From Eubacteriales bacterium (GTDB lineage Bacteria > Bacillota > Clostridia > Oscillospirales > CAG-272): a stretch of 64,000 nt of DNA. The translations under genes and the position numbers were made by a program. The stretch lies in contig JAZOUO010000035.1 in assembly GCA_045658225.1 (NCBI GenBank), forward strand, positions 13,639 to 77,638. The letters run 5' to 3'. The notes under the pieces are model-generated. The model saw nothing but the letters and a program-made list of their open reading frames with translations, was not told the DNA's origin and did no database searches. Shown one piece after another: positions 52,682 through 61,774 of this stretch; within the stretch, counting starts at the first letter, position 1, and each line of letters begins with the position of its first letter.

Positions 52682-53233
52682 TTATTCAAATAAGAAGTTG
52701 ATATTTCCTGCAACAAGAGATACAATTCCTCTGTAAACTATCTCGGGATGTTCTCTGAAGTTGTCTTCCATTTTCTGCGCAAATTTAAGGTTGTCCACAA
52801 CGAGAGTTGTCGTGAGTATAGGCTCGTTCTTCTCGTTGACCTTGCAGATAACATCGTATCTGCCGTCCTCTCTTTTCTCTATCTTGCAGGATATGGTTAT
52901 ACCGCGCTTTCTGAAATCAAGATAACGCAACGCGCAAGAAAGGCTTTTCTGCAAAAGAGCCATATGTATTTCTCCGTGAAGCTCGGTAGCAACAAGTCTT
53001 CCCTTTGGGCTGACTACGTAAAGATCGTCTCCATCTTCGTTCTGTCCGTAAATATCGATAAGTCCCGCATCAAGCATTTCGTGGAAGCTCTCGGCGAAGT
53101 CAAGATAAAGCACGTAATCGTTTTGCATAACGATATCATTTATTGTGATATAATCCATAGGATAATTTATATTCTGCATAAGGTAAAGCACAAAGATTTT
53201 TACATTCTGCTTACCTCCGACTAGTGATCCCAT
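52682..53233 (-). CDS. DUF4364-family protein (from memory)
   Basis: 183 aa with 'KIFVLYLMQNINYPMDYITINDIV...' at the N-terminus. AGGGAGGA precedes the ATG. Confidence 0.6.
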   Translation of the reverse strand: MGSLVGGKQNVKIFVLYLMQNINYPMDYITINDIVMQNDYVLYLDFAESFHEMLDAGLIDIYGQNEDGDDLYVVSPKGRLVATELHGEIHMALLQKSLSCALRYLDFRKRGITISCKIEKREDGRYDVICKVNEKNEPILTTTLVVDNLKFAQKMEDNFREHPEIVYRGIVSLVAGNINFLFE

Positions 53234-53389
53234 ACAATTTCCTCCCTATTTTTTAACTCATACTGATATTTTACCATAAATATTATTTTTTTTCAATAGT
53301 AAGGTTGCATTTTCTGAAAAAATGTGGTATTATATATTCATATTACTTTAATTCGATAAAATTACCCAATTTCGAAAGGACCCTTGATA

Positions 53390-54586
53390 ATGGCAAAAAT
53401 AGCAATTCTGGGCTTCGGCACCGTAGGATCGGGTGTTGCGGAGGTTATCACACAAAACAACAATATCATCACTAAAAAGATAGGCGAAAGCCTTGATGTC
53501 AAATACATTCTCGATTTGTGCGACTTCCCCGGAAGCCCCTTTGAGAATCTTGTAATTCACGATTTCAATATCATACTCAATGACCCCGAGGTCTCTATCG
53601 TTGCAGAAATGATGGGCGGATCCCACCCTGCATACGACTTTTCAAAGGCGTGTCTTGAGGCGGGCAAGAGCGTTGTCACATCAAACAAGGAGGTAGTTGC
53701 AAAGTTCGGCGCGGAGCTTCTTGAGACCGCAAAGGCTCATGGTGTCTCTTACTTGTTCGAGGCGAGCGTTGGCGGCGGTATTCCGATTATCCGTCCCATG
53801 TGCAACGACCTGTCCTCCAACAATCTCTGCGAGGTCAGCGGTATTCTCAACGGAACTACGAACTTTATCCTTACCAAGATGGACAAGGAGGGCGCAGAGT
53901 TCTCCGACGTGCTCAAGGAGGCTCAGAGACTTGGCTATGCCGAGGCAAACCCCACGGCAGACGTTGAGGGAATTGATGCGGCAAGAAAGATAGTTATTCT
54001 CGCGGCCCTGTCATTCGGTAAGCTCGCAAGTCCCGACAGTATTCATACAGAGGGTATAACGAAGATTTCCAAGACTGCGGTTGAGGTTGCTAAAAAGCTC
54101 GGATATTCCGTAAAGCTTATTGGCCACACAAGAAATATTGACGGAAAGATGCTCTGCATGGTATCTCCCAGACTTATACCCGACTCAAATCCCCTCTCTA
54201 GCATTGACGGCGTATTCAACGGAATACTCGTTTCGGGAGATATGGTTGGTCAGGTTATGTTCTATGGCCCCGGCGCGGGAAAGCTTCCCACGGCGAGTGC
54301 TGTGTGCGCCGACATAGTTGATATCGCGGCTCACAAGGGCAATATAAAGCTTCCCTCTTTTACTGTTGCAACAGAGTCTGACATGGCTGATTTTGAGTCC
54401 TACACCTGCGACAGATTGTTTATCTTGAATGGCGATTCTTCCCTTTCCCGCTTTGGAGATATACAGACAACTGTGCGCGAGGGTGACTACACCTGCGTAA
54501 TTGTAAAGCAGATGAGCGAAGCAGATGCCGCGACTCTTATTTCGGACGAGAGCGTGGGTATTTGCGAGTCTATAAGACTTCTTTGA
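53390..54586 (+). CDS. hom: homoserine dehydrogenase
   Basis: 'IAILGFGTVGSGV' NAD(P) motif, 'VTSNKE', 'EASVGGGIPII', 'GILNGTTNFILT' and a C-terminal ACT-like domain. ATG 53390 follows AAAGGA. Confidence 0.92.
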   Translation: MAKIAILGFGTVGSGVAEVITQNNNIITKKIGESLDVKYILDLCDFPGSPFENLVIHDFNIILNDPEVSIVAEMMGGSHPAYDFSKACLEAGKSVVTSNKEVVAKFGAELLETAKAHGVSYLFEASVGGGIPIIRPMCNDLSSNNLCEVSGILNGTTNFILTKMDKEGAEFSDVLKEAQRLGYAEANPTADVEGIDAARKIVILAALSFGKLASPDSIHTEGITKISKTAVEVAKKLGYSVKLIGHTRNIDGKMLCMVSPRLIPDSNPLSSIDGVFNGILVSGDMVGQVMFYGPGAGKLPTASAVCADIVDIAAHKGNIKLPSFTVATESDMADFESYTCDRLFILNGDSSLSRFGDIQTTVREGDYTCVIVKQMSEADAATLISDESVGICESIRLL

Positions 54587-54646: not shown

Positions 54647-55396
54647 ATGAAAAAAAGTACCTTTCTTATGACTATAATCGGAACGGTCACATCAATTCTT
54701 TTGACGGTCATTTATGTACTGTTATTGAATATTACGGCAAGCCTGAGTTTTTCAGCCTTTGCTCCCGATATCGCAGTTATAGCTCTGCGCGAGCATACCA
54801 CGGTCTTTATAATTACCGCATTTTTGATATTTGAAGTGATTTTCTTTATCTACCTGTTTTCAATTATGGCCAAAGAAAAAAGCGACAAGCAGGACGGCGT
54901 GCTTTTGGACGGCAACTCTATTGACAACAAGAAAAATCACAAGATTATTCTTACAAAGACCACTAAAATTGCGGGTGCTTTGGGAATAGTTCTCCTCGTT
55001 GGGATGCTTGTGTTCAACGCGGGAGTTTATACCGAGGTTTCAAAGGACTCCATAAAGAAAAAAGTTTTTATAACCACGCAGGAGTACACGTGGGACGAGG
55101 TTTACAGATACTCATTCTCCTGCGATGAAAATGCAAATCTTCAATACACCGTTCAAATGACTGACGGAAAGTCCTTTCAGATACTTGTTTCGTCCAACTC
55201 CTGCTCCGAGGAGTTCACACAGGAGTTTGGAGACGTATTAACCTTTGCCTACTACCTCTCATGTGAATTTGAAAGCAGTGACAGGCAGATCATAAAGGAT
55301 ATCGTAGGACTTGAATATATGGAGCAGTACTATAAATCCAACGAGACAAATTGGTCGAAAATTGAGAAAATAATCAACGCGGGAGATACCCCGTAA
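54647..55396 (+). CDS. hypothetical membrane protein (3 predicted TM plus C-terminal soluble domain)
   Basis: Long ORF with hydrophobic segments and GGTGA 6 nt before the ATG. No family recognised. Confidence 0.65.
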   Translation: MKKSTFLMTIIGTVTSILLTVIYVLLLNITASLSFSAFAPDIAVIALREHTTVFIITAFLIFEVIFFIYLFSIMAKEKSDKQDGVLLDGNSIDNKKNHKIILTKTTKIAGALGIVLLVGMLVFNAGVYTEVSKDSIKKKVFITTQEYTWDEVYRYSFSCDENANLQYTVQMTDGKSFQILVSSNSCSEEFTQEFGDVLTFAYYLSCEFESSDRQIIKDIVGLEYMEQYYKSNETNWSKIEKIINAGDTP

Positions 55397-55398
55397 CA

Positions 55399-55431
55399 CA
55401 AAAATCCGATGACAAGTGTCATCGGATTTTT
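55399..55431. terminator. perfect bidirectional hairpin terminator
   Basis: AAAAATCCGATGACA-ag-TGTCATCGGATTTTT. Confidence 0.8.
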
Positions 55432-55471
55432 GTTATTCGCCTTTGATTTTTTTCCAATATTCCTCTGCCGC
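55419..55471 (-). repeat. orphan copy of the rarA 3' end (left repeat of the cassette)
   Basis: The minus-strand reading is RAAEEYWKKIKGE* plus 14 nt after the stop. By hand alignment, 47 of 53 nt are identical to 60525-60577. Confidence 0.8.
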
Positions 55472-55510
55472 GCGAGGTTTTTCTCACCCCCGCCGTCACA
55501 GGGGGGATTA

Positions 55511-55945
55511 CTATTTATACATCAAAACAACGGACGGATCTATGTTTGGATCTCCGTGAATATTAAACACTTCTCCCCAAGAAAAAACTTTTCTGGGGGT
55601 ATCACAATATTTACCAAACCATATTTTTACATTTTCAGATACCTTATCGATGTTATTAAAATACATTTTGGCATCTATAGGGTTATTTTTCTGTATATGA
55701 GGATAGATATATACACGACAAAGTTTTGACTTTTGATTCCTAACAGAAAAGCAAATCGAAAGTTGTATATATTTATTTTCTTCAACATCTGCCCAGATAC
55801 TATACCATATATATCCCGTTTTAAAGTCTTTCTTCTTAATCAACTCTATGTCGGTGTCAGTTTCAAGCTTGTCTATCGTTAAATATCTATCTATTTTTAA
55901 TCCCGATTGACAAAGGACAATTTCGCCGTTTTTTAAGTCTAACAT
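55511..55945 (-). CDS. hypothetical 144-aa cytoplasmic protein, candidate immunity protein
   Basis: GAGGT SD. The start overlaps the upstream stop (ATGTTAG). It is the last gene of the toxin-like operon. No family recognised. Confidence 0.6.
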   Translation of the reverse strand: MLDLKNGEIVLCQSGLKIDRYLTIDKLETDTDIELIKKKDFKTGYIWYSIWADVEENKYIQLSICFSVRNQKSKLCRVYIYPHIQKNNPIDAKMYFNNIDKVSENVKIWFGKYCDTPRKVFSWGEVFNIHGDPNIDPSVVLMYK

Positions 55946-56379
55946 TTTTCTACCTCGGGTTTATCCTCGCCGTCAAACGAATCCATAAGAGTGGGGACTG
56001 CGCCGTCATAATACCACGACTCATCCAACCAATACACGTTTTCAGGCGTTGCTATAACCGACGGGTGGGGCGCCTCTCCTCTATCTACAGGCCAAAGTAT
56101 ATTCTGACCATAAGACAAAGGTCCCTCTATCATCATTCCACAATCAGGACAAAAATAAGACTTTGTGGACGGATTAAATGTTCCGTAATAAACCCTTTGC
56201 TCAACAGTTTTAATCTTATAGTCATCCAAAACTCTTTTCATTGTCACAACCATTGTGGCTGGGGCGCTTTCCGTTTTCTTATGATTCATCATTGATGCAA
56301 TATAATTTCCCCTTGTGAGTTCGGACTTGTAAATTTCCTGCAATTCTTTACATAGTTTCATTGTTATATTTCCTTTCAT
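55939..56379 (-). CDS. hypothetical 146-aa cytoplasmic protein, candidate immunity protein
   Basis: The start overlaps the toxin-like gene's stop (ATGA). An alternative ATG at 56361 follows AAAGGA. Contains 'YFCPDCGMMIEGP'. No family recognised. Confidence 0.6.
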   Translation of the reverse strand: MKGNITMKLCKELQEIYKSELTRGNYIASMMNHKKTESAPATMVVTMKRVLDDYKIKTVEQRVYYGTFNPSTKSYFCPDCGMMIEGPLSYGQNILWPVDRGEAPHPSVIATPENVYWLDESWYYDGAVPTLMDSFDGEDKPEVEKC

Positions 56380-58226
56380 CCCGTAGTTAGTGCTGTTTCT
56401 GCCACACGTTCTAAAACATTCGCAAAAAATTCAATAAAATATTGTTCGTACCCCCCAGTGCCAATAAACTCACCATTTACATAAGTATTATTAGATGCAG
56501 TGCCGTATGCAACCACTATATCTTCTTTAACAACATATTCAGCAACGGATGTTCTATATCCATGACTAGGATCTTTCTTAATTTGCAACCCTTGGTTGAG
56601 GGTTATCTGATTATATCCGCTTTGTTCAACACTTGCCGCTGTTGTATACCAACTACCCTGCCCAGGCAACAGACCGTACACTTTATCTCCTTTTTTCAAA
56701 ATTACCGTTTTGAAATTATCAGGACTATACCCATTAGCAATTTGAGATTGTCTTGCAACATCAACCACGGTGTGTCTTCTTTGATATGCCGCCTGAACAT
56801 CCGCCTGTGCGCTTGTAGTCATATTGGCCGCAAAGTCATCTGCATACAGCGTTTTTGCATAATTAAAGCCACACATCGCTATTAAAGCTTTAATATTATT
56901 CAAAAATTCGTTGAGATTTTCAATCTGCACCACAGGATTATAATATCCACCAAGCCCCTTAACTTCGTATTCTGCCGTCACATACTGTGCTCTATCGGTG
57001 GTAATGCTTAATCCAAAATAGTTTTGAATTCTTGATTTAATCCATTCTATGCCCAAATTCCCATTGTACCATAGTCTAAAATAACTTATCAATACCAATT
57101 TAACTTCAAGAAAATCCCTTGAAGTACCTGAACATATATCACTCGCCAAACTATTTAATCCACAAGGTCCATGGTGATATAAATAATATGTTTCATTAGT
57201 AGTTAAGGCTTCAAGTATCTTATCCTTTTGAGTCACACCCCTAACTTCAACAAGAGCAAGCAAGCCTCCATCGGAATCATATCCTGAAACAAGAGCATAT
57301 CCGCTTTCAATACATTCGAATACCGTTATATCGTTTTGCGAAATAACATCAGGATTATCGGTCCTCCATTCCGAGACACCATTTATTATTCGACGCATAT
57401 TAAAAGTTTGGCCTTGGTCAATTTGTATAGAATAAAGCTGTTCATTGACTGTAACGTAAAAGTCAAAAGTCCGATCAAGCAACACATGTTTTGCCTGTAT
57501 CTGAACCGTGCCAGCTTTAAGTCCTAATATTTTGCCCCGTTCAAGCATTATCTTAACACAACTATCATCGCCTGACAATATCGTATATTCAAAATCCTGA
57601 AGAGATGCATATCTAAAATAATCTGGTAAATTTATATCTATATCAGCAGGTTCTCCAATGTCTATGTTTAAATTGCTGAAACTTGTATTATTTAAAATAG
57701 AGATATACTCCGCATCCAATGGATATACTCTCCAGCGATGATTTTTCTCAGTTGTTGGATTGTCATCGGAAACTAAATTCTCCCCGTCGTAATACAAATA
57801 CTTGTTCGTCGCCTTATTCTTTATGCTTAGTAGCTCAGAGCCAAATATTGGAGACAATTCCAATTTCCAAATGCAATCATCCGTTACAATACCTTGCCGT
57901 TGCGCAAGAGATATGCGTCCTGTGCTTGAGCATGACAAGCAGTACCCTAATCTGCTATACGGCTGTATAACATACTGATTAAAACCAATATTTGTGATCT
58001 CCCATTTTACCTTGTCGCCAAGGTCCCATGAAAATCCATTTTCAAGCTTTCTGGTACTTGACAAAAAACCTCCATAGCCAACGTTATTTATGAAATATGT
58101 CCCCGATTCAATTCGTTCCAAACCAAGCTCAAGCTCTAAGAGTTCACCGTTTCTATACAAATACCACTCCTGATGATTGAAATCGCAGTACGGACAAGTA
58201 AAATCATCTATATGATAGCAGGACAA
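56376..58226 (-). CDS. C-terminal 616 codons of the interrupted toxin-like gene (lectin-like repeats, Ig-like domain, unassigned C-terminal module)
   Basis: Same frame as 58251..60269, separated by TGA plus 8 codons. The listed start is TTG without an SD. Motifs: xxW repeats (VKWEI, CIWKL, HRWRV), Big_2-like 'LGLKAGTVQIQAKH', and C-terminal 'GTGGYEQYFIEF'. Confidence 0.6.
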   Translation of the reverse strand: MSCYHIDDFTCPYCDFNHQEWYLYRNGELLELELGLERIESGTYFINNVGYGGFLSSTRKLENGFSWDLGDKVKWEITNIGFNQYVIQPYSRLGYCLSCSSTGRISLAQRQGIVTDDCIWKLELSPIFGSELLSIKNKATNKYLYYDGENLVSDDNPTTEKNHRWRVYPLDAEYISILNNTSFSNLNIDIGEPADIDINLPDYFRYASLQDFEYTILSGDDSCVKIMLERGKILGLKAGTVQIQAKHVLLDRTFDFYVTVNEQLYSIQIDQGQTFNMRRIINGVSEWRTDNPDVISQNDITVFECIESGYALVSGYDSDGGLLALVEVRGVTQKDKILEALTTNETYYLYHHGPCGLNSLASDICSGTSRDFLEVKLVLISYFRLWYNGNLGIEWIKSRIQNYFGLSITTDRAQYVTAEYEVKGLGGYYNPVVQIENLNEFLNNIKALIAMCGFNYAKTLYADDFAANMTTSAQADVQAAYQRRHTVVDVARQSQIANGYSPDNFKTVILKKGDKVYGLLPGQGSWYTTAASVEQSGYNQITLNQGLQIKKDPSHGYRTSVAEYVVKEDIVVAYGTASNNTYVNGEFIGTGGYEQYFIEFFANVLERVAETALTTG

Positions 58227-58250
58227 ATATCCGCCCGTGACTACCCATTC

Positions 58251-60203
58251 TCAATTTTCATAATGACCTTGATCCGGCATTGTAAGCGCGAGACTCATAT
58301 CTCCGCGAAGCACAATATAAAACGTCCATACCGAAGTAGGCGCAAATATCCATTCCTGTCTCTCGGGAATATCATCGCTGCTCCATATCACGCCGCCGGT
58401 ATCATTAACGGTAAGATATAGAGAAGAATTTGCAGTGCTTCTTATCTTATATCCGCCCGTATCATCGTTTTTGAGCAATGTAAAGTTTACACTGCTTTCG
58501 GTAGTCTGCGCGGTGGAGTTTGGTACTGCCCCATAGTCTATATATCTGCCATTGTCGGCATTATAAAAGCTTAAGCTATCACCCGTATTAAATTCGCTTG
58601 CAAACGCATATCCGTACGTGATCGCTATATACGGACCTGCTCCGTTTGCATTTTCCGACGAGCATATGGGATATACATATGAATTACCGTCCGAAATCAG
58701 CTTCGCCGCAAACACCTTATCGCTAAGAAATTCAGCTGTTCCCTGAAAAACGCTCGTCCAATTAAAGATAAGTTGTTTTTCTTGAGGGAACATGCTCATA
58801 TTGGTAGAAAATTCCACATATGAATCAAGATAATCATCATACGTCATCTCATCCGCCGACATCATAGCAGTTAGCACTTCAAAATTTATTTGACCCTCAC
58901 TAAACGGGGCAAATGATAACGTAAGATTTAGCGTTGCTTTTTGTATCGGTAAACTATCGTGTATCACGGGGAGAGTTAAAAATGATATTACAGCAATATT
59001 TCCTTCTGTGATCTGCAAAATCTGCTCGTCGCTATGATCCACAGTATCGCCTTCTTTGAAATACGCATCCTGCACGTTTGACTGGTATTCCTTAGTCGTC
59101 ACCGAGGGGTCAAGCATTATTGGATATACTCTGTCAGGCGAGTTCAGCCACTCGCTGTTGGGAGTATACGTGATTATACATTTGTTGCCGTCAACAGAAA
59201 GTTTGACCTGTATATCGTTGAGAACTGCATACGATGCGTCTATCATATAAGGTATGCTTATATGATACGCCATATCTCCGTTTTTGTCAAGAAAATCTAT
59301 GCTGTTATCGGAATTCAGTACAGGTATCAAGCCCGTGCAGTCAACCGACATCGAAAAGGACTCTATATCCGTTTTTCTTTCAATAAAAATGTCCTCTTCT
59401 ATTTTATTACGATAGACTGTATAGCGCACCGATACCCCCTCGTCTTCTCCAAAAAGAGCATCATATCTTACAGTGTTCGATACCTTGGGGAGAGCAAATG
59501 CGCTCTCATCGTTTATATTTATTTTTGTAAAGCTTTCATTCTCTTCTTCGTTCTTCATTGTACCAAGCACGCTAACCGATGTGGATGATGATACTCCTAT
59601 CGTAGTCTGCTCGGTGTTTTCAGACAGCGAATAAATACTTGATGTACTCGACGCCTGTAATTTTTTGTTTGCGGTTAGCGTCCACGAAAGCGCACTGTCT
59701 TTACTTTGCATTGTGACCAGCTTGCCACTGCTTGACGTGTCATTGGTATTGCCTTGAATACCCGCGACGCTCGTGTCACCGGGCGTCTGTACAGGCGCAG
59801 TATAGAAACTTACCTTATAATCTCCGTTTTGCGCCTCGTATGCGCCGATTGTTTCGTTTGCGGAAAGACTGTTGTCAATGTCTGTCCATTCCCCGTTATC
59901 ATCACGGTAATGCACCGCCTCGGCATACGTGACCGCAACAAACGTTCCGTCAGAGCACAGATAATGCTTTTCAAATTTTCCGCGCTTGGTAGTGTCCTCG
60001 GAGAGTATATACACGTCCTTCTCTGTCTCATCAAGCTCTGTTTCAGTCAGATTCTCATATGTTGGTTGAGAGATTGTTTCTTCTATGTTATCATTTTCTG
60101 TAGTTTCAAGCGTTTGTGCCAACGAAGCTACCGGAAAGCTGGCGATAAGCATTACTACTACGAGTAAAAACGCCAAGCATCTTAAAAATTTATATTTTTT
60201 CAT
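58251..60203 (-). CDS. N-terminal 650 codons of the interrupted toxin-like gene (signal peptide, beta-rich region, lectin-like repeat)
   Basis: ATG 60203 follows GAAAGGAA. Signal peptide 'MKKYKFLRCLAFLLVVVMLIASFPVASLAQT', then 'VYPIMLDPSV' and 'ERQEWIF'. The ORF ends at TGA 58251-58253 in mid-domain. Confidence 0.65.
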   Translation of the reverse strand: MKKYKFLRCLAFLLVVVMLIASFPVASLAQTLETTENDNIEETISQPTYENLTETELDETEKDVYILSEDTTKRGKFEKHYLCSDGTFVAVTYAEAVHYRDDNGEWTDIDNSLSANETIGAYEAQNGDYKVSFYTAPVQTPGDTSVAGIQGNTNDTSSSGKLVTMQSKDSALSWTLTANKKLQASSTSSIYSLSENTEQTTIGVSSSTSVSVLGTMKNEEENESFTKININDESAFALPKVSNTVRYDALFGEDEGVSVRYTVYRNKIEEDIFIERKTDIESFSMSVDCTGLIPVLNSDNSIDFLDKNGDMAYHISIPYMIDASYAVLNDIQVKLSVDGNKCIITYTPNSEWLNSPDRVYPIMLDPSVTTKEYQSNVQDAYFKEGDTVDHSDEQILQITEGNIAVISFLTLPVIHDSLPIQKATLNLTLSFAPFSEGQINFEVLTAMMSADEMTYDDYLDSYVEFSTNMSMFPQEKQLIFNWTSVFQGTAEFLSDKVFAAKLISDGNSYVYPICSSENANGAGPYIAITYGYAFASEFNTGDSLSFYNADNGRYIDYGAVPNSTAQTTESSVNFTLLKNDDTGGYKIRSTANSSLYLTVNDTGGVIWSSDDIPERQEWIFAPTSVWTFYIVLRGDMSLALTMPDQGHYEN

Positions 60204-60345
60204 ATAAAAATTCCTTTCAGAGTATGGTTGATTTTCGTAATTGCATATAGCATCGCTATATGCCCACACTCCAAAAAATCAGAGGGGTGTTTCTGTGTGT
60301 TGTTTTTTTGCTTGCGTTAATCATAACATCCCTCCTTTGAAATTT

Positions 60346-60391
60346 AAAAATACAAAAACGCATAGGTATGGCAGAACCGCCAACCTATGCG
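60346..60391 (-). terminator. rho-independent terminator for rarA, carried inside the cassette
   Basis: Minus strand: CGCATAGGT-15 nt-ACCTATGCG followed by TTTTTGTATTTTT. Confidence 0.7.
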
Positions 60392-60524
60392 TAAATTACC
60401 TTTTGTCAATAAACTCGGCAACTGCTTGTTGTCGGGCGATATTGCTCTTGATTTATTTTACCATATTTTTACATTAAATGTGTGAACAATATGTAAATCA
60501 AAACAGTTTTGAGAATTCATGACC

Positions 60525-60577
60525 TCATCGGATTTTTGTTATTCGCCCTTAATCTTCTTCCAGTATTCCTCTGCTGC
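60525..60577 (-). repeat. right repeat: authentic 3' end of rarA plus 14 nt downstream
   Basis: It reads KAAEEYWKKIKGE* and matches 55419-55471 (47/53). Only the right arm of the 55.4-kb hairpin is present here. Confidence 0.8.
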
Positions 60578-61774
60578 CTTTTCCGTCTTGTTCTCGCCGA
60601 AACGGTAGTATTTTTTGCCCTTTATGTCGCTGGGCAGATACTGCTGCTTGACATAATGATTGGGGTAATCGTGAGGGTATTTATAGCCCTTGAAAAGCGG
60701 GCTTTGGAGCTGAATAGGAGGCTCAAGTCCAAGCCCTGCCTTTATATCCTCGTCTGCCGCCGCAAGCGCCATATACGCGGAGTTGGATTTGGGCGCGGTA
60801 GCAAGCATCAAAGCCGCATGAATTAGAGGAAGTCTTGCCTCGGGCATACCAAGCTCGCGCGCAGAGTCACAGCAAGCCTTTACTATCGCGGGGGCTATGG
60901 GATACGCAAGCCCTATATCCTCGCTGGCTATTACCTGAAGTCTACGGCAAAGAGATATTATATCTCCCTGCTCAAGCATTTTCGCGACGTAAAACGCAGT
61001 CGCGTCGGGATCGGAGCCTCGGATAGACTTTTGCAGACAGCCAAGCATATCGTAGTGTGTGTCGTCGTTAAAGTTGCCCACTCCTGCGGAAAACTGACTT
61101 GCGGAGTCAACAGTAATTATATTGTCCGACGCAAAATATGCGTTCTCAAAAAGTCCTATCGAGCGACGCACGTCTCCCCTTGCCGCCTTGGAGATAAACT
61201 CAAGCGCGTCGGGCGCGACTGTTTTTTGCGTGTTGTTTTCGGTGTTGAGATAATCCAAAGCTCGCAAAAGCATTTTTTGTATTTCGGTGTGCTCCACGGG
61301 CTTAAACTCAAAGAGTGACGAACGGGATATGACCGCGTTATATACGTAAAAATGCGGGTTTTCCGTGGTTGACGCGATAAGCGTCACACGTCCGTCCTCG
61401 ATATATTCAAGCAACGCCTGCTGCTGCTTGCGGTTAAAATACTGTATCTCATCTATGTAAAGAAGTATTCCCGACGCGCCGAATAAATTTGACGAGGAAT
61501 TGAGTACTTCTTTTACGTCCGAAAGGCTTGCGCTGGTCGCGTTAAAGCGGTGGAACGAGATTCCTGACATCTTTGCGATAACTCCCGCTGCGGTAGTCTT
61601 ACCCGTGCCTGGAGGGCCATAAAATATCATATTTGTTATTCTTCCGCCTGAAAGCATTCTTCGGATTATTCCTTTTTCTCCGAAAAGGTGGGACTGTCCC
61701 ACTATTTCGTCCATATTTTGCGGTCTTAAAATATCCGCAAGCTGTGCATTTCTCATTTGAATTGATTTCTCCAA
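60539..61774 (-). CDS. rarA: replication-associated recombination protein A (RarA/MgsA AAA+ ATPase)
   Basis: 'LRPQNMDEIVGQSHL', 'GPPGTGKTT', 'IDEIQYFNRKQQ', 'ASTTENP' and a C-terminal MgsA domain. Confidence 0.93.
   Translation of the reverse strand: MEKSIQMRNAQLADILRPQNMDEIVGQSHLFGEKGIIRRMLSGGRITNMIFYGPPGTGKTTAAGVIAKMSGISFHRFNATSASLSDVKEVLNSSSNLFGASGILLYIDEIQYFNRKQQQALLEYIEDGRVTLIASTTENPHFYVYNAVISRSSLFEFKPVEHTEIQKMLLRALDYLNTENNTQKTVAPDALEFISKAARGDVRRSIGLFENAYFASDNIITVDSASQFSAGVGNFNDDTHYDMLGCLQKSIRGSDPDATAFYVAKMLEQGDIISLCRRLQVIASEDIGLAYPIAPAIVKACCDSARELGMPEARLPLIHAALMLATAPKSNSAYMALAAADEDIKAGLGLEPPIQLQSPLFKGYKYPHDYPNHYVKQQYLPSDIKGKKYYRFGENKTEKAAEEYWKKIKGE

Follow-up and report, generated by a model that had tools for sequence, protein, structure and literature searches.

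A toxin-gene cassette between two copies of the rarA 3′ end in an uncultured gut bacterium, and its likeness to integrase-less mobile elements

How does a five-kilobase block of genes come to lie between the 3′ end of a housekeeping gene and an orphaned second copy of that same 3′ end, when no recombinase gene is found within it or beside it? This question is raised by the rarA locus of a 64-kb stretch of DNA (the window, meaning that whole stretch) from a clade of uncultured Oscillospiraceae/Eubacteriales gut bacteria, in which a cassette carrying a secreted-toxin gene and two small genes separates rarA from the terminator hairpin that directly follows it in several relatives. On balance, and with some reserve, we favour the view that the cassette is an integrase-less element flanked by attachment (att) sites and resembling a cis-mobilizable element (CIME; defined in PMC5704250), its crossover having probably been catalysed by a site-specific recombinase supplied in trans. 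An initial annotation of the sequence had proposed integration into the 3′ end of a gene by an element that supplies a replacement end, a proposal supported by empty sites in relatives, by the score of the repeat, by base composition and by the reciprocal chimerism of the two repeat copies.

The loci and contigs compared with the window carry L-numbers (L001, L005 and so on). A RarA scan of species-representative genomes gave 80 loci, all from metagenome-assembled genomes (MAGs) of uncultured gut Eubacteriales/Oscillospiraceae, and protein-based look-ups added four further lineages of the close clade (L161-163, L164-165, L167-168 and L176-178). Exact protein look-ups for the RarA and the membrane protein of the window found no record, and a scan of metagenomes for rarA returned relatives of at most 78% identity only, uninformative for this locus.

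The rarA-tail repeat and the empty site

The features that define the borders of the cassette are the following:
60539..61774, minus strand: rarA, encoding the MgsA/RarA AAA+ ATPase, the target gene (Pfam MgsA_C, 1.9e-52, and AAA)
60525..60577, minus strand: attL-like copy, the present 3′ end of rarA (from the repeat and the comparison of parentage)
55419..55475, minus strand: attR-like orphan copy of the rarA tail (RAAEEYWKKIKGE, stop codon, 14 nt; from the repeat and from relatives)
55398..55433, no strand assigned: native bidirectional terminator hairpin with perfect 17-bp arms, serving the membrane-protein gene and, in relatives with an empty site, rarA
54647..55396, plus strand: gene for a 249-aa membrane protein, the neighbour that shares the terminator hairpin

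The last 13 codons of rarA, its stop codon and 14 downstream nucleotides (60525-60577) recur at 55419-55471 as an ungapped direct repeat of 53 nt, and the alignment confirms the 47 identical positions out of 53 that had been counted by hand. As a null, the last 60 nt of rarA together with 40 nt of downstream sequence were aligned to the rest of their own locus in about 75 related loci having enough downstream sequence; the best direct scores are 38 in the window and 36 in L005, against 6-14 in the other related loci, with the single exception of L046, where a score of 22 comes from a terminator-proximal tandem repeat. The hairpin is complete at 55.4 kb (arms 55398-55414 and 55417-55433), and only its right arm is repeated, at 60525-60539, as the initial annotation had described. 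The same hairpin stands directly after rarA in L001, L161, L164, L167 and L176. In the window, rarA is now terminated by a leader/terminator module of the cassette, whose hairpin at 60358-60392, about 150 nt past the rarA stop codon, is followed by a T-run on the minus strand; the cassette-borne terminator proposed for rarA is thus real.

The surroundings are conserved in order, with genes for a sigma factor, a DUF4364 protein, homoserine dehydrogenase and the 249-aa membrane protein followed by rarA, cysK and a gene for a 270-aa membrane protein. In many of the 80 loci, including L001, whose RarA is 98% identical to that of the window, only the hairpin lies between the convergent membrane-protein gene and rarA. 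Such empty-site alleles, which the initial annotation had asked to be looked for, are found in five species-level lineages and at least 14 contigs (L001; L161-163; L164-165; L167-168; L176-178). Among them, L161-163 has a membrane protein 91% identical to that of the window and is by several genes the closest lineage outside the window species. When these relatives are compared with the window by blastn, their alignments end at 55471-55474 and restart at 60522-60525, and the one copy of the segment that they possess can be aligned with either copy in the window; the insert is therefore 55472-60524, or 5,053 bp. The orphan copy reaches 55475 (CGCGCGG) when it is compared with relatives whose rarA reads ...ERAAEEYW.

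Occupied sites are found in other species as well. The RarA of L005 is 99% identical to that of the window and its cysK only 81% identical at the nucleotide level, which places it in a different species; at the same site it carries a 1.27-kb insert, bracketed by the rarA-tail repeat, with a single gene for a 309-aa lipoprotein (weak Pfam match to DUF4901). L002 has the left element end as in the window, on a contig that ends within the cargo. The element ends thus recur in L005 and L002, answering the earlier call to search for the same cassette elsewhere, and no recombinase accompanies them there. The occupied lineages (the window species, L005 and L002) never group together in seven gene trees, in which each of them has an empty lineage at least equally close; in a star-like, mosaic phylogeny, this pattern can be only suggestive.

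The insert also stands apart in composition. Its GC content is 39.3%, against 48.1% in rarA and 43.3% in the window, which puts it in the lowest 2% of 5-kb windows, and no other part of the window has so large a tetranucleotide distance (0.22 versus 0.147 ± 0.023, about 3 standard deviations). The AT-richness noted from hand counts thus stands, but the GC content of 27-33% given for 55.5-57.7 kb is too low as an average, as 55472-57700 has 37.0%.

Similarity between the two ends extends faintly beyond the 53-nt repeat. The weaker, indel-containing match reported further upstream (GGTGAGA--AAAACC versus GGTGAGAATAAAACC) is present, but with shuffle p values of 0.02-0.4, depending on the reference, it is marginal. 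Weak collinear similarity past the 56-nt core is seen on both sides, at 60490-60524 (GTCATGAATT versus the native terminator GTCATCGGATT) and at 55476-55487 (GGTGAGAAAAACC versus the rarA codons GGTGAGAATAAAACC). Possibly, then, some 110 nt of the rarA end are present in the element as an older copy in decay, a statistically marginal suggestion. Two minor repeats, D6 and D10, considered as an extension of the main repeat, lie by eye in mirrored order and are treated as chance.

Parentage of the two copies and the crossover interval

Where the two copies differ, their differences can be assigned to a native or a foreign origin by comparison with empty sites. With the alignment anchored on the invariant CAGAGGAATA, the sequences read as follows:
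Window copy 1 (attached to rarA): GAGAACAAGACGGAAAAGGCAG / CAGAGGAATA / CTGGAAGAAGATTAAGGGCGAATAACAAAAATCCGATGA, then the element
Window copy 2 (orphan): the element, then GGGTGAGAAAAACCTCGCGCGG / CAGAGGAATA / TTGGAAAAAAATCAAAGGCGAATAACAAAAATCCGATGAC, then the hairpin
Empty site of the sister lineage L161: GAGAACAAGACCGAAAAGGCAG / CAGAGGAATA / TTGGAAGAAAATCAAAGGCGAATAAT...
Empty site of L176: ...GAAAAAGCGG / CAGAGGAATA / CTGGAAAAAAATAAAAGGCGAATAAC...
L001, L002, L167 and L005: ...GAGCGCGCGG / CAGAGGAATA / TTGGAAGAAGATTAAGGG... or near variants

In copy 1, the left part (GAGAACAAGACGGAAAAGGCAG) is native, with EK codons that it has in common with L161 only, and the right part (GAAGATTAAGGGCGAATAACAAAAATCC) is of the foreign ER-lineage type; an earlier assignment of these EK codons as foreign was reversed by the sister lineage L161. 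Copy 2 has the opposite make-up, as its left part (...GGGTGAGAAAAACCTCGCGCGG) is foreign and identical to copy 2 of L005, including the junction with the right-end module modB, and its right part is native (AAAATCAAAGG being common to L161 only, with L176 similar). The terminator-proximal part of the orphan copy (AAAAATCAAAGG...) accordingly matches L161/L176, and its cassette-proximal part (CGCGCGG...GGAATAT) is element-derived. In the attached copy, the codons before the crossover are native, and the last 10 or so codons, the stop codon and the 14 nt that follow are derived from the element. This element-supplied end is synonymous, encoding the same amino acids (WKKIKGE and stop), so that the replacement 3′ end and the orphaned rarA tail of the initial annotation are both borne out. 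By the parentage of their informative sites, the two copies are reciprocal native/foreign chimeras, which is the attL/attR pattern of Campbell integration; they are therefore neither a target-site duplication nor a duplication within the lineage.

The switch of parentage falls inside CAGAGGAATAYTGGAA in both copies, in an interval of at most 17 nt located about 10 codons before the stop codon and delimited by informative sites on either side:
55453..55468, minus strand: crossover interval of the orphan copy (CAGAGGAATATTGGAA)
60558..60573, minus strand: crossover interval of the rarA-attached copy (CAGAGGAATACTGGAA)

Should the C/T and A/G sites on either side represent native polymorphism, a view that L176 suggests, the switch would be confined to the 5 nt TGGAA, and such a 5-nt island of identity between mismatches would suit a site-specific enzyme rather than RecA. 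The reconstructed attP (CGCGCGGCAGAGGAATATTGGAAGAAGATTAAGGGCGAATAACAAAAATCCGATGA) equals the natural rarA tail of L001-type species. The derived attP junction reads ...GGCGGGGGTGAGAAAAACCTCGCGCGGCAGAGGAATATTGGAAGAAGATTAAGGGCGAATAACAAAAATCCGATGAGGTCATGAATTC..., the derived attB of the window species ...GACGGAAAAGGCAGCAGAGGAATAYTGGAAAAAAATCAAAGGCGAATAACAAAAATCCGATGACACTTGTCATCGG..., and the 56-nt core is described by the degenerate pattern CAGAGGAATAYTGGAARAARAT. The attP junction can thus be searched for in sequencing reads; finding it would show movement and help to identify the enzyme.

We infer from this anatomy that the element once existed as a circle, on which about 56 nt mimicked the rarA tail (attP), and that one reciprocal crossover in CAGAGGAATAYTGGAA joined this circle to the rarA tail of the host (attB). 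By this single event, rarA would have gained the synonymous end supplied by the element together with its leader/terminator module, while the displaced native tail and terminator hairpin would have been left orphaned next to the membrane-protein gene. The element itself would consist of a constant non-coding backbone (the attP core, the left-end module modA and, at the right end, a GC hairpin with an adjoining 12 nt) with exchangeable cargo. The catalyst would be a site-specific recombinase, probably of the tyrosine type, acting in trans from a related integrase-bearing element.

Non-coding backbone, toxin cargo and conspecific strains

Two non-coding modules border the cargo:
60338..60486, minus strand: modA, left-end module, with an extended −10 promoter (TGGTAAAAT), a two-hairpin leader RNA some 100 nt long and an intrinsic terminator (from sequence comparison)
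55476..55507, minus strand: modB, right-end module, made of the GC hairpin 55488-55507 and TGAGAAAAACCT adjoining the orphan copy (shared with L005)

The intrinsic terminator of modA also stops read-through from rarA. Copies of modA are 93-95% identical in L005 (11258-11403), L002 (5234-5384), L171 (9733-9876) and L169 (1-67), with 127 of 133 nt identical in a conservation test. The module spans about 150 nt, has a folding z-score of −3.6 and precedes genes for different secreted proteins at no fewer than two kinds of locus; it is a candidate attenuator, leader or small RNA. One of these loci is in the MAG of L002 itself (GCA_045659745.1), where a modA-toxin unit lies on another contig (L171) directly after rsmF; as far as its positions indicate, modA is thus a multi-copy leader of secreted-protein genes that is not specific to the rarA site. 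In L171 (9706-10001), the unit begins 13 nt past the stop codon of the rsmF-like methyltransferase gene, on a contig that ends before the far end of the unit. An Rfam search of both strands of the cassette gave a sub-threshold match to the native terminator hairpin only, and a scan of metagenomic DNA for modA gave nothing. The modB module is observed in the window and L005 only, where the two sequences share 51 consecutive identical nucleotides across the modB junction; syntenic intergenic DNA of the two species is 83-90% identical, so that the backbone is the more conserved. In L169/L170, the toxin operon is terminated by a closely similar hairpin (CCCCCGCCGTCACAGCGGGGG) followed by a T-run. 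Past the modA terminator and upstream of the toxin start lies a short open reading frame (ORF; around 60256-60324, minus strand), about 22 codons long and provided with a strong ribosome-binding site; L171 and L169, whose leaders are of the toxin type, conserve its nucleotide sequence, and L005 and L002, with leaders of the lipoprotein type, lack it.

The cargo accounts for the remainder of the cassette, with four ORFs on the minus strand, two of which, of 672 and 616 aa, belong to one frame of 1275 codons:
58254..60203, minus strand: N-terminal part of the toxin, with a Sec-type signal peptide (from the ORF and comparison with homologues)
58251..58253, minus strand: in-frame TGA that splits the toxin gene (Gly or Glu in homologues)
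56376..58250, minus strand: C-terminal part of the toxin, with a ricin-type lectin repeat and an Rhs2-NADase-like C-terminal domain (RicinB_lectin_2; PDB 6xtd_A)
55939..56379, minus strand: p146, a small CxxC protein, candidate immunity or accessory protein (co-varies with the toxin C-terminal tip)
55511..55945, minus strand: p144, candidate immunity protein (paralogues follow toxins with the same type of C-terminus in L169, L170 and L172)

The toxin-like gene and two small genes of the initial annotation are thus present, with the refinement that the toxin is a single frame split by TGA. As TGA is a normal stop codon in the genome of the window, the one in the toxin gene is either a nonsense mutation or a sequencing error. 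Uninterrupted full-length homologues exist, namely P0013 (1274 aa, 67% identity over 98% coverage) and P0015, while most homologues share the N-terminal 72% or so only (about 920 aa) and continue into other C-termini, such as lipase, LCAT or PGAP1-like domains; RicinB_lectin_2, DNRLRE and Big_2 are the common domains of the family. The last 167 residues of the toxin match PDB 6xtd_A (E = 9.7e-13), a chain described by its depositors as the Rhs2 NADase toxin domain of Serratia marcescens, solved with its immunity protein (PMC10539506). Judged by its sequence, the cargo is a Sec-secreted polymorphic toxin, constant in its N-terminal region and variable in its C-terminal toxin domain; its presumed role is in competition between bacteria. 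Both p144 and p146 are candidates for an immunity function; together with the membrane protein, they gave nothing significant in Pfam, NCBIfam and PDB sequence searches. In L169/L170, the corresponding operon runs from the modA terminator and leader through the toxin gene to genes for 143-aa, 146/140-aa and 144-aa proteins, and ends in the hairpin and T-run.

Both repeat copies and their junctions recur in three further independent assemblies of the window species (L173-L175). CysK in these assemblies is identical to that of the window or one residue off, mismatches in the flanks number 0-1 per 200 nt across 5 kb, and they differ from the window inside the cassette only. All three are without window positions 57945-59412; in L173 and L175, this is an in-frame deletion of about 490 codons that leaves a 785-aa ORF keeping both signal peptide and toxin domain, and in L174, the ORF with the same deletion is further split into 175 and 621 aa. 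At 55933-56732, a patch covering p146 and the toxin C-terminal tip differs between the window and these strains at 175 of 800 nt (22%), and looks like a recombinational swap of a toxin-tip/small-gene allele. The element appears to be fixed in the sampled population and decaying, with the toxin interrupted, the small genes intact and the interior recombining.

Competing explanations and known systems

Site-specific recombination is favoured because the crossover lies in a very short island of identity and the switch occurs at the same place in both products. Several observations nevertheless weigh against it, beginning with the enzyme. As the initial annotation had remarked, no integrase accompanies the cassette, and none was found in the window, in the conspecific strains, in the two other occupied species or next to rarA in about 130 relatives. 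None of the four cassette ORFs has a recombinase or transposase domain in Pfam or NCBIfam, and the cassette is fully accounted for by the toxin, the two small genes and the two non-coding modules. With phmmer, seeded with E. coli XerD and the gamma-delta resolvase (a search of limited sensitivity that did not cover DDE transposases), no match was obtained even at E ≤ 10 among 414 ORFs from the 6 kb that follow rarA, drawn from about 130 loci, and the whole 64-kb window gave none at E ≤ 0.01, while three Xer-like proteins and one resolvase found elsewhere in the 2.1 Mb analysed served as positive controls. The genes flanking the cassette are conserved core genes, and no remnant of a backbone gene of an integrative and conjugative element (ICE) or integrative and mobilizable element (IME) was found inside it. 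Blastn of the cassette against plasmids and phages gave no match, nor did scans of viral contigs for modA, for the degenerate rarA-tail pattern or for the modB/attP-left junction. To this is added that every sampled conspecific strain is occupied, that the ancestral attB is deduced from sister species in a star-like phylogeny, that two of the sites narrowing the interval are third-position transitions and thus possible homoplasies, that no dyad symmetry is evident by eye around the interval, and that the presence of modA at the unrelated rsmF locus points to a role in cargo regulation rather than necessarily to an attP arm.

Homologous recombination alone, in which an occupied allele that arose once in another species would have been spread by RecA, whether as a linear fragment that crossed over twice within the repeated tail or as a circle freed by recombination between the repeats and put back by a Campbell event, is the foremost of the rivals, though an unlikely one. 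It would agree with the mosaic character of the clade, whose gene trees disagree, with the 22%-divergent patch within otherwise identical conspecific genomes, and with the failure to find a recombinase; the foreign att halves are the natural rarA tail of species of the L001/L002/L167 type, and the homoserine dehydrogenase gene (hom) of L168 is identical to that of the window. It would, however, have to act on about 56 nt of mismatched homology, with an identical run across the switch of at most 20 nt and possibly 5 nt. The minimal efficient processing segment that RecA usually needs is longer than this. A linear donor would further require two independent crossovers in the same interval of at most 17 nt, despite the availability of about 1.2 kb of rarA and 0.75 kb of the membrane-protein gene at 83-90% identity, and the origin of the first duplication would be left unexplained. 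The L168 contig (ERZ28633639 scaffold_419) deserves a remark of its own: its hom gene corresponds to window positions 53137-54534, the contig is otherwise of the L167 type, and the window species (L174) is present in the same sample, so that either a chimeric metagenome assembly or a very recent interspecies recombination would account for it.

Quite unlikely, in our estimate, is the possibility that what moves is the backbone of about 250 nt itself, forming a recombinase-free platform at the rarA tail within which different secreted-protein cargoes are swapped, and inserted by a host-encoded or unlinked enzyme or by a RecA-independent short-repeat mechanism; if true, the platform would be an integron-like exchange site without an integrase gene, and sister platforms could exist, for instance in the L002 genome at rsmF. 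Likewise quite unlikely is an old duplication of the rarA tail in situ, into which cargo was later inserted and which was inherited vertically and repeatedly lost by deletion between the repeats in the empty lineages: it could draw on the weak collinear similarity on both sides of the 56-nt core and on the ease of precise deletion between direct repeats, but it requires at least 4-5 independent precise losses, the element ends are more conserved between species than neutral intergenic DNA, and the combination of a foreign left half in the orphan copy (ER) with a native left half in the attached copy (EK) is impossible within a lineage. A transposon-like insertion with a long target-site duplication made by staggered cuts would also flank the insert with direct repeats of target sequence, but it is effectively refuted, as it would give two identical native copies instead of reciprocal chimeras, lacks both a transposase and terminal inverted repeats, and would not account for the same junction in another species with different cargo. 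To our knowledge, a target-site duplication of about 56 bp is also far outside known ranges. Hardly more credible is an artefact of metagenome assembly joining unrelated contigs at a repeat: chimeric assemblies are probable in these samples (L168), and modA is multi-copy, with contigs breaking at or near it (L169, L002 and L171), yet the same junctions, copies and flanks recur in the three further conspecific assemblies and in L005.

Among known systems, the trans-recombined element that we favour comes nearest to the CIMEs. CIMEs related to ICESt1/ICESt3 reside at the 3′ end of fda in Streptococcus thermophilus. Like them, the cassette is bounded by attL/attR repeats, of which a housekeeping gene's 3′ end forms part, has neither integrase nor transfer genes, and keeps its target gene intact by supplying the replaced end; unlike them, it holds no decayed ICE or IME genes, no cognate ICE, IME or integrase targeting rarA was found for it, and it has a non-coding backbone of about 250 nt only, with toxin-immunity cargo here and a lipoprotein in L005. 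The microcin H47 island of E. coli is likewise a small antibacterial island with imperfect direct repeats and no recombinase of its own, so that this function has to come from the host or from another element; its excision and integration, shown by PCR, are RecA-independent and involve four homology blocks in long att sites (PMC5426353). In comparison, the mobility of the cassette is deduced from comparative data, and its repeat, which has only one crossover interval, consists of a gene's 3′ end. With integrase-encoding islands, prophages and IMEs at the 3′ ends of tRNA, tmRNA or protein genes, such as the ssrA islands of Dehalococcoides (PMC3146451), it has in common a Campbell-type insertion, a gene-restoring repeat, empty sites and an atypical composition, but those islands have an integrase gene beside the att site; as an integrase-encoding island, prophage or IME, the cassette is rejected, since it contains no tyrosine or serine recombinase gene. 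In its cargo, it resembles Rhs2-type polymorphic toxin systems, with a constant N-terminus of about 920 aa, variable C-termini, small genes downstream and an apparent joint replacement of the toxin tip and the adjacent small gene between strains. Unlike the Rhs proteins of type VI secretion systems, its toxin is Sec-secreted, has lectin repeats and belongs to a gut anaerobe of Gram-positive type; the gene is interrupted, and the small proteins match no immunity family.

On this reading, the cassette belongs to a known kind of stranded element, of which the rarA target and the poorly studied clade are the new parts, and its backbone is unusually small; no new mechanism is demonstrated. It offers a clear sequence-level case of a toxin-immunity module set into the tail of a housekeeping gene without its own recombinase, in which hybrid att sites, empty sites and a crossover interval of at most 17 nt can all be read. 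It would add rarA to the 3′ ends of protein genes that serve as attachment sites, in a clade with poorly described mobile elements; a limited full-text literature search found no report of rarA in this role, which is weak negative evidence. For annotation, it is a caution that short orphan gene tails beside terminators can mark the borders of small islands.

Two further models were set aside. An integron-like attC x attI reaction is rejected on anatomy, and capture by the host XerCD recombinases at dif, near the replication terminus, as in integrative mobile elements exploiting Xer, is rejected as the site is the coding 3′ end of rarA; the cumulative GC skew falls steadily over 50-64 kb with no sign change, and the dif motif was not formally searched for. 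In five more distant relatives (L007, L013, L017, L020 and L021), the gap between rarA and the membrane-protein gene holds unrelated genes and no rarA-tail repeat, so that these insertions, considered as instances of the same element, are rejected as ordinary gene-content differences. The genes found there encode a 256-259-aa membrane protein, a 161-aa protein and a 988-aa membrane enzyme, and in L017, the gap is occupied by genes for a lipoprotein and a lectin-repeat protein.

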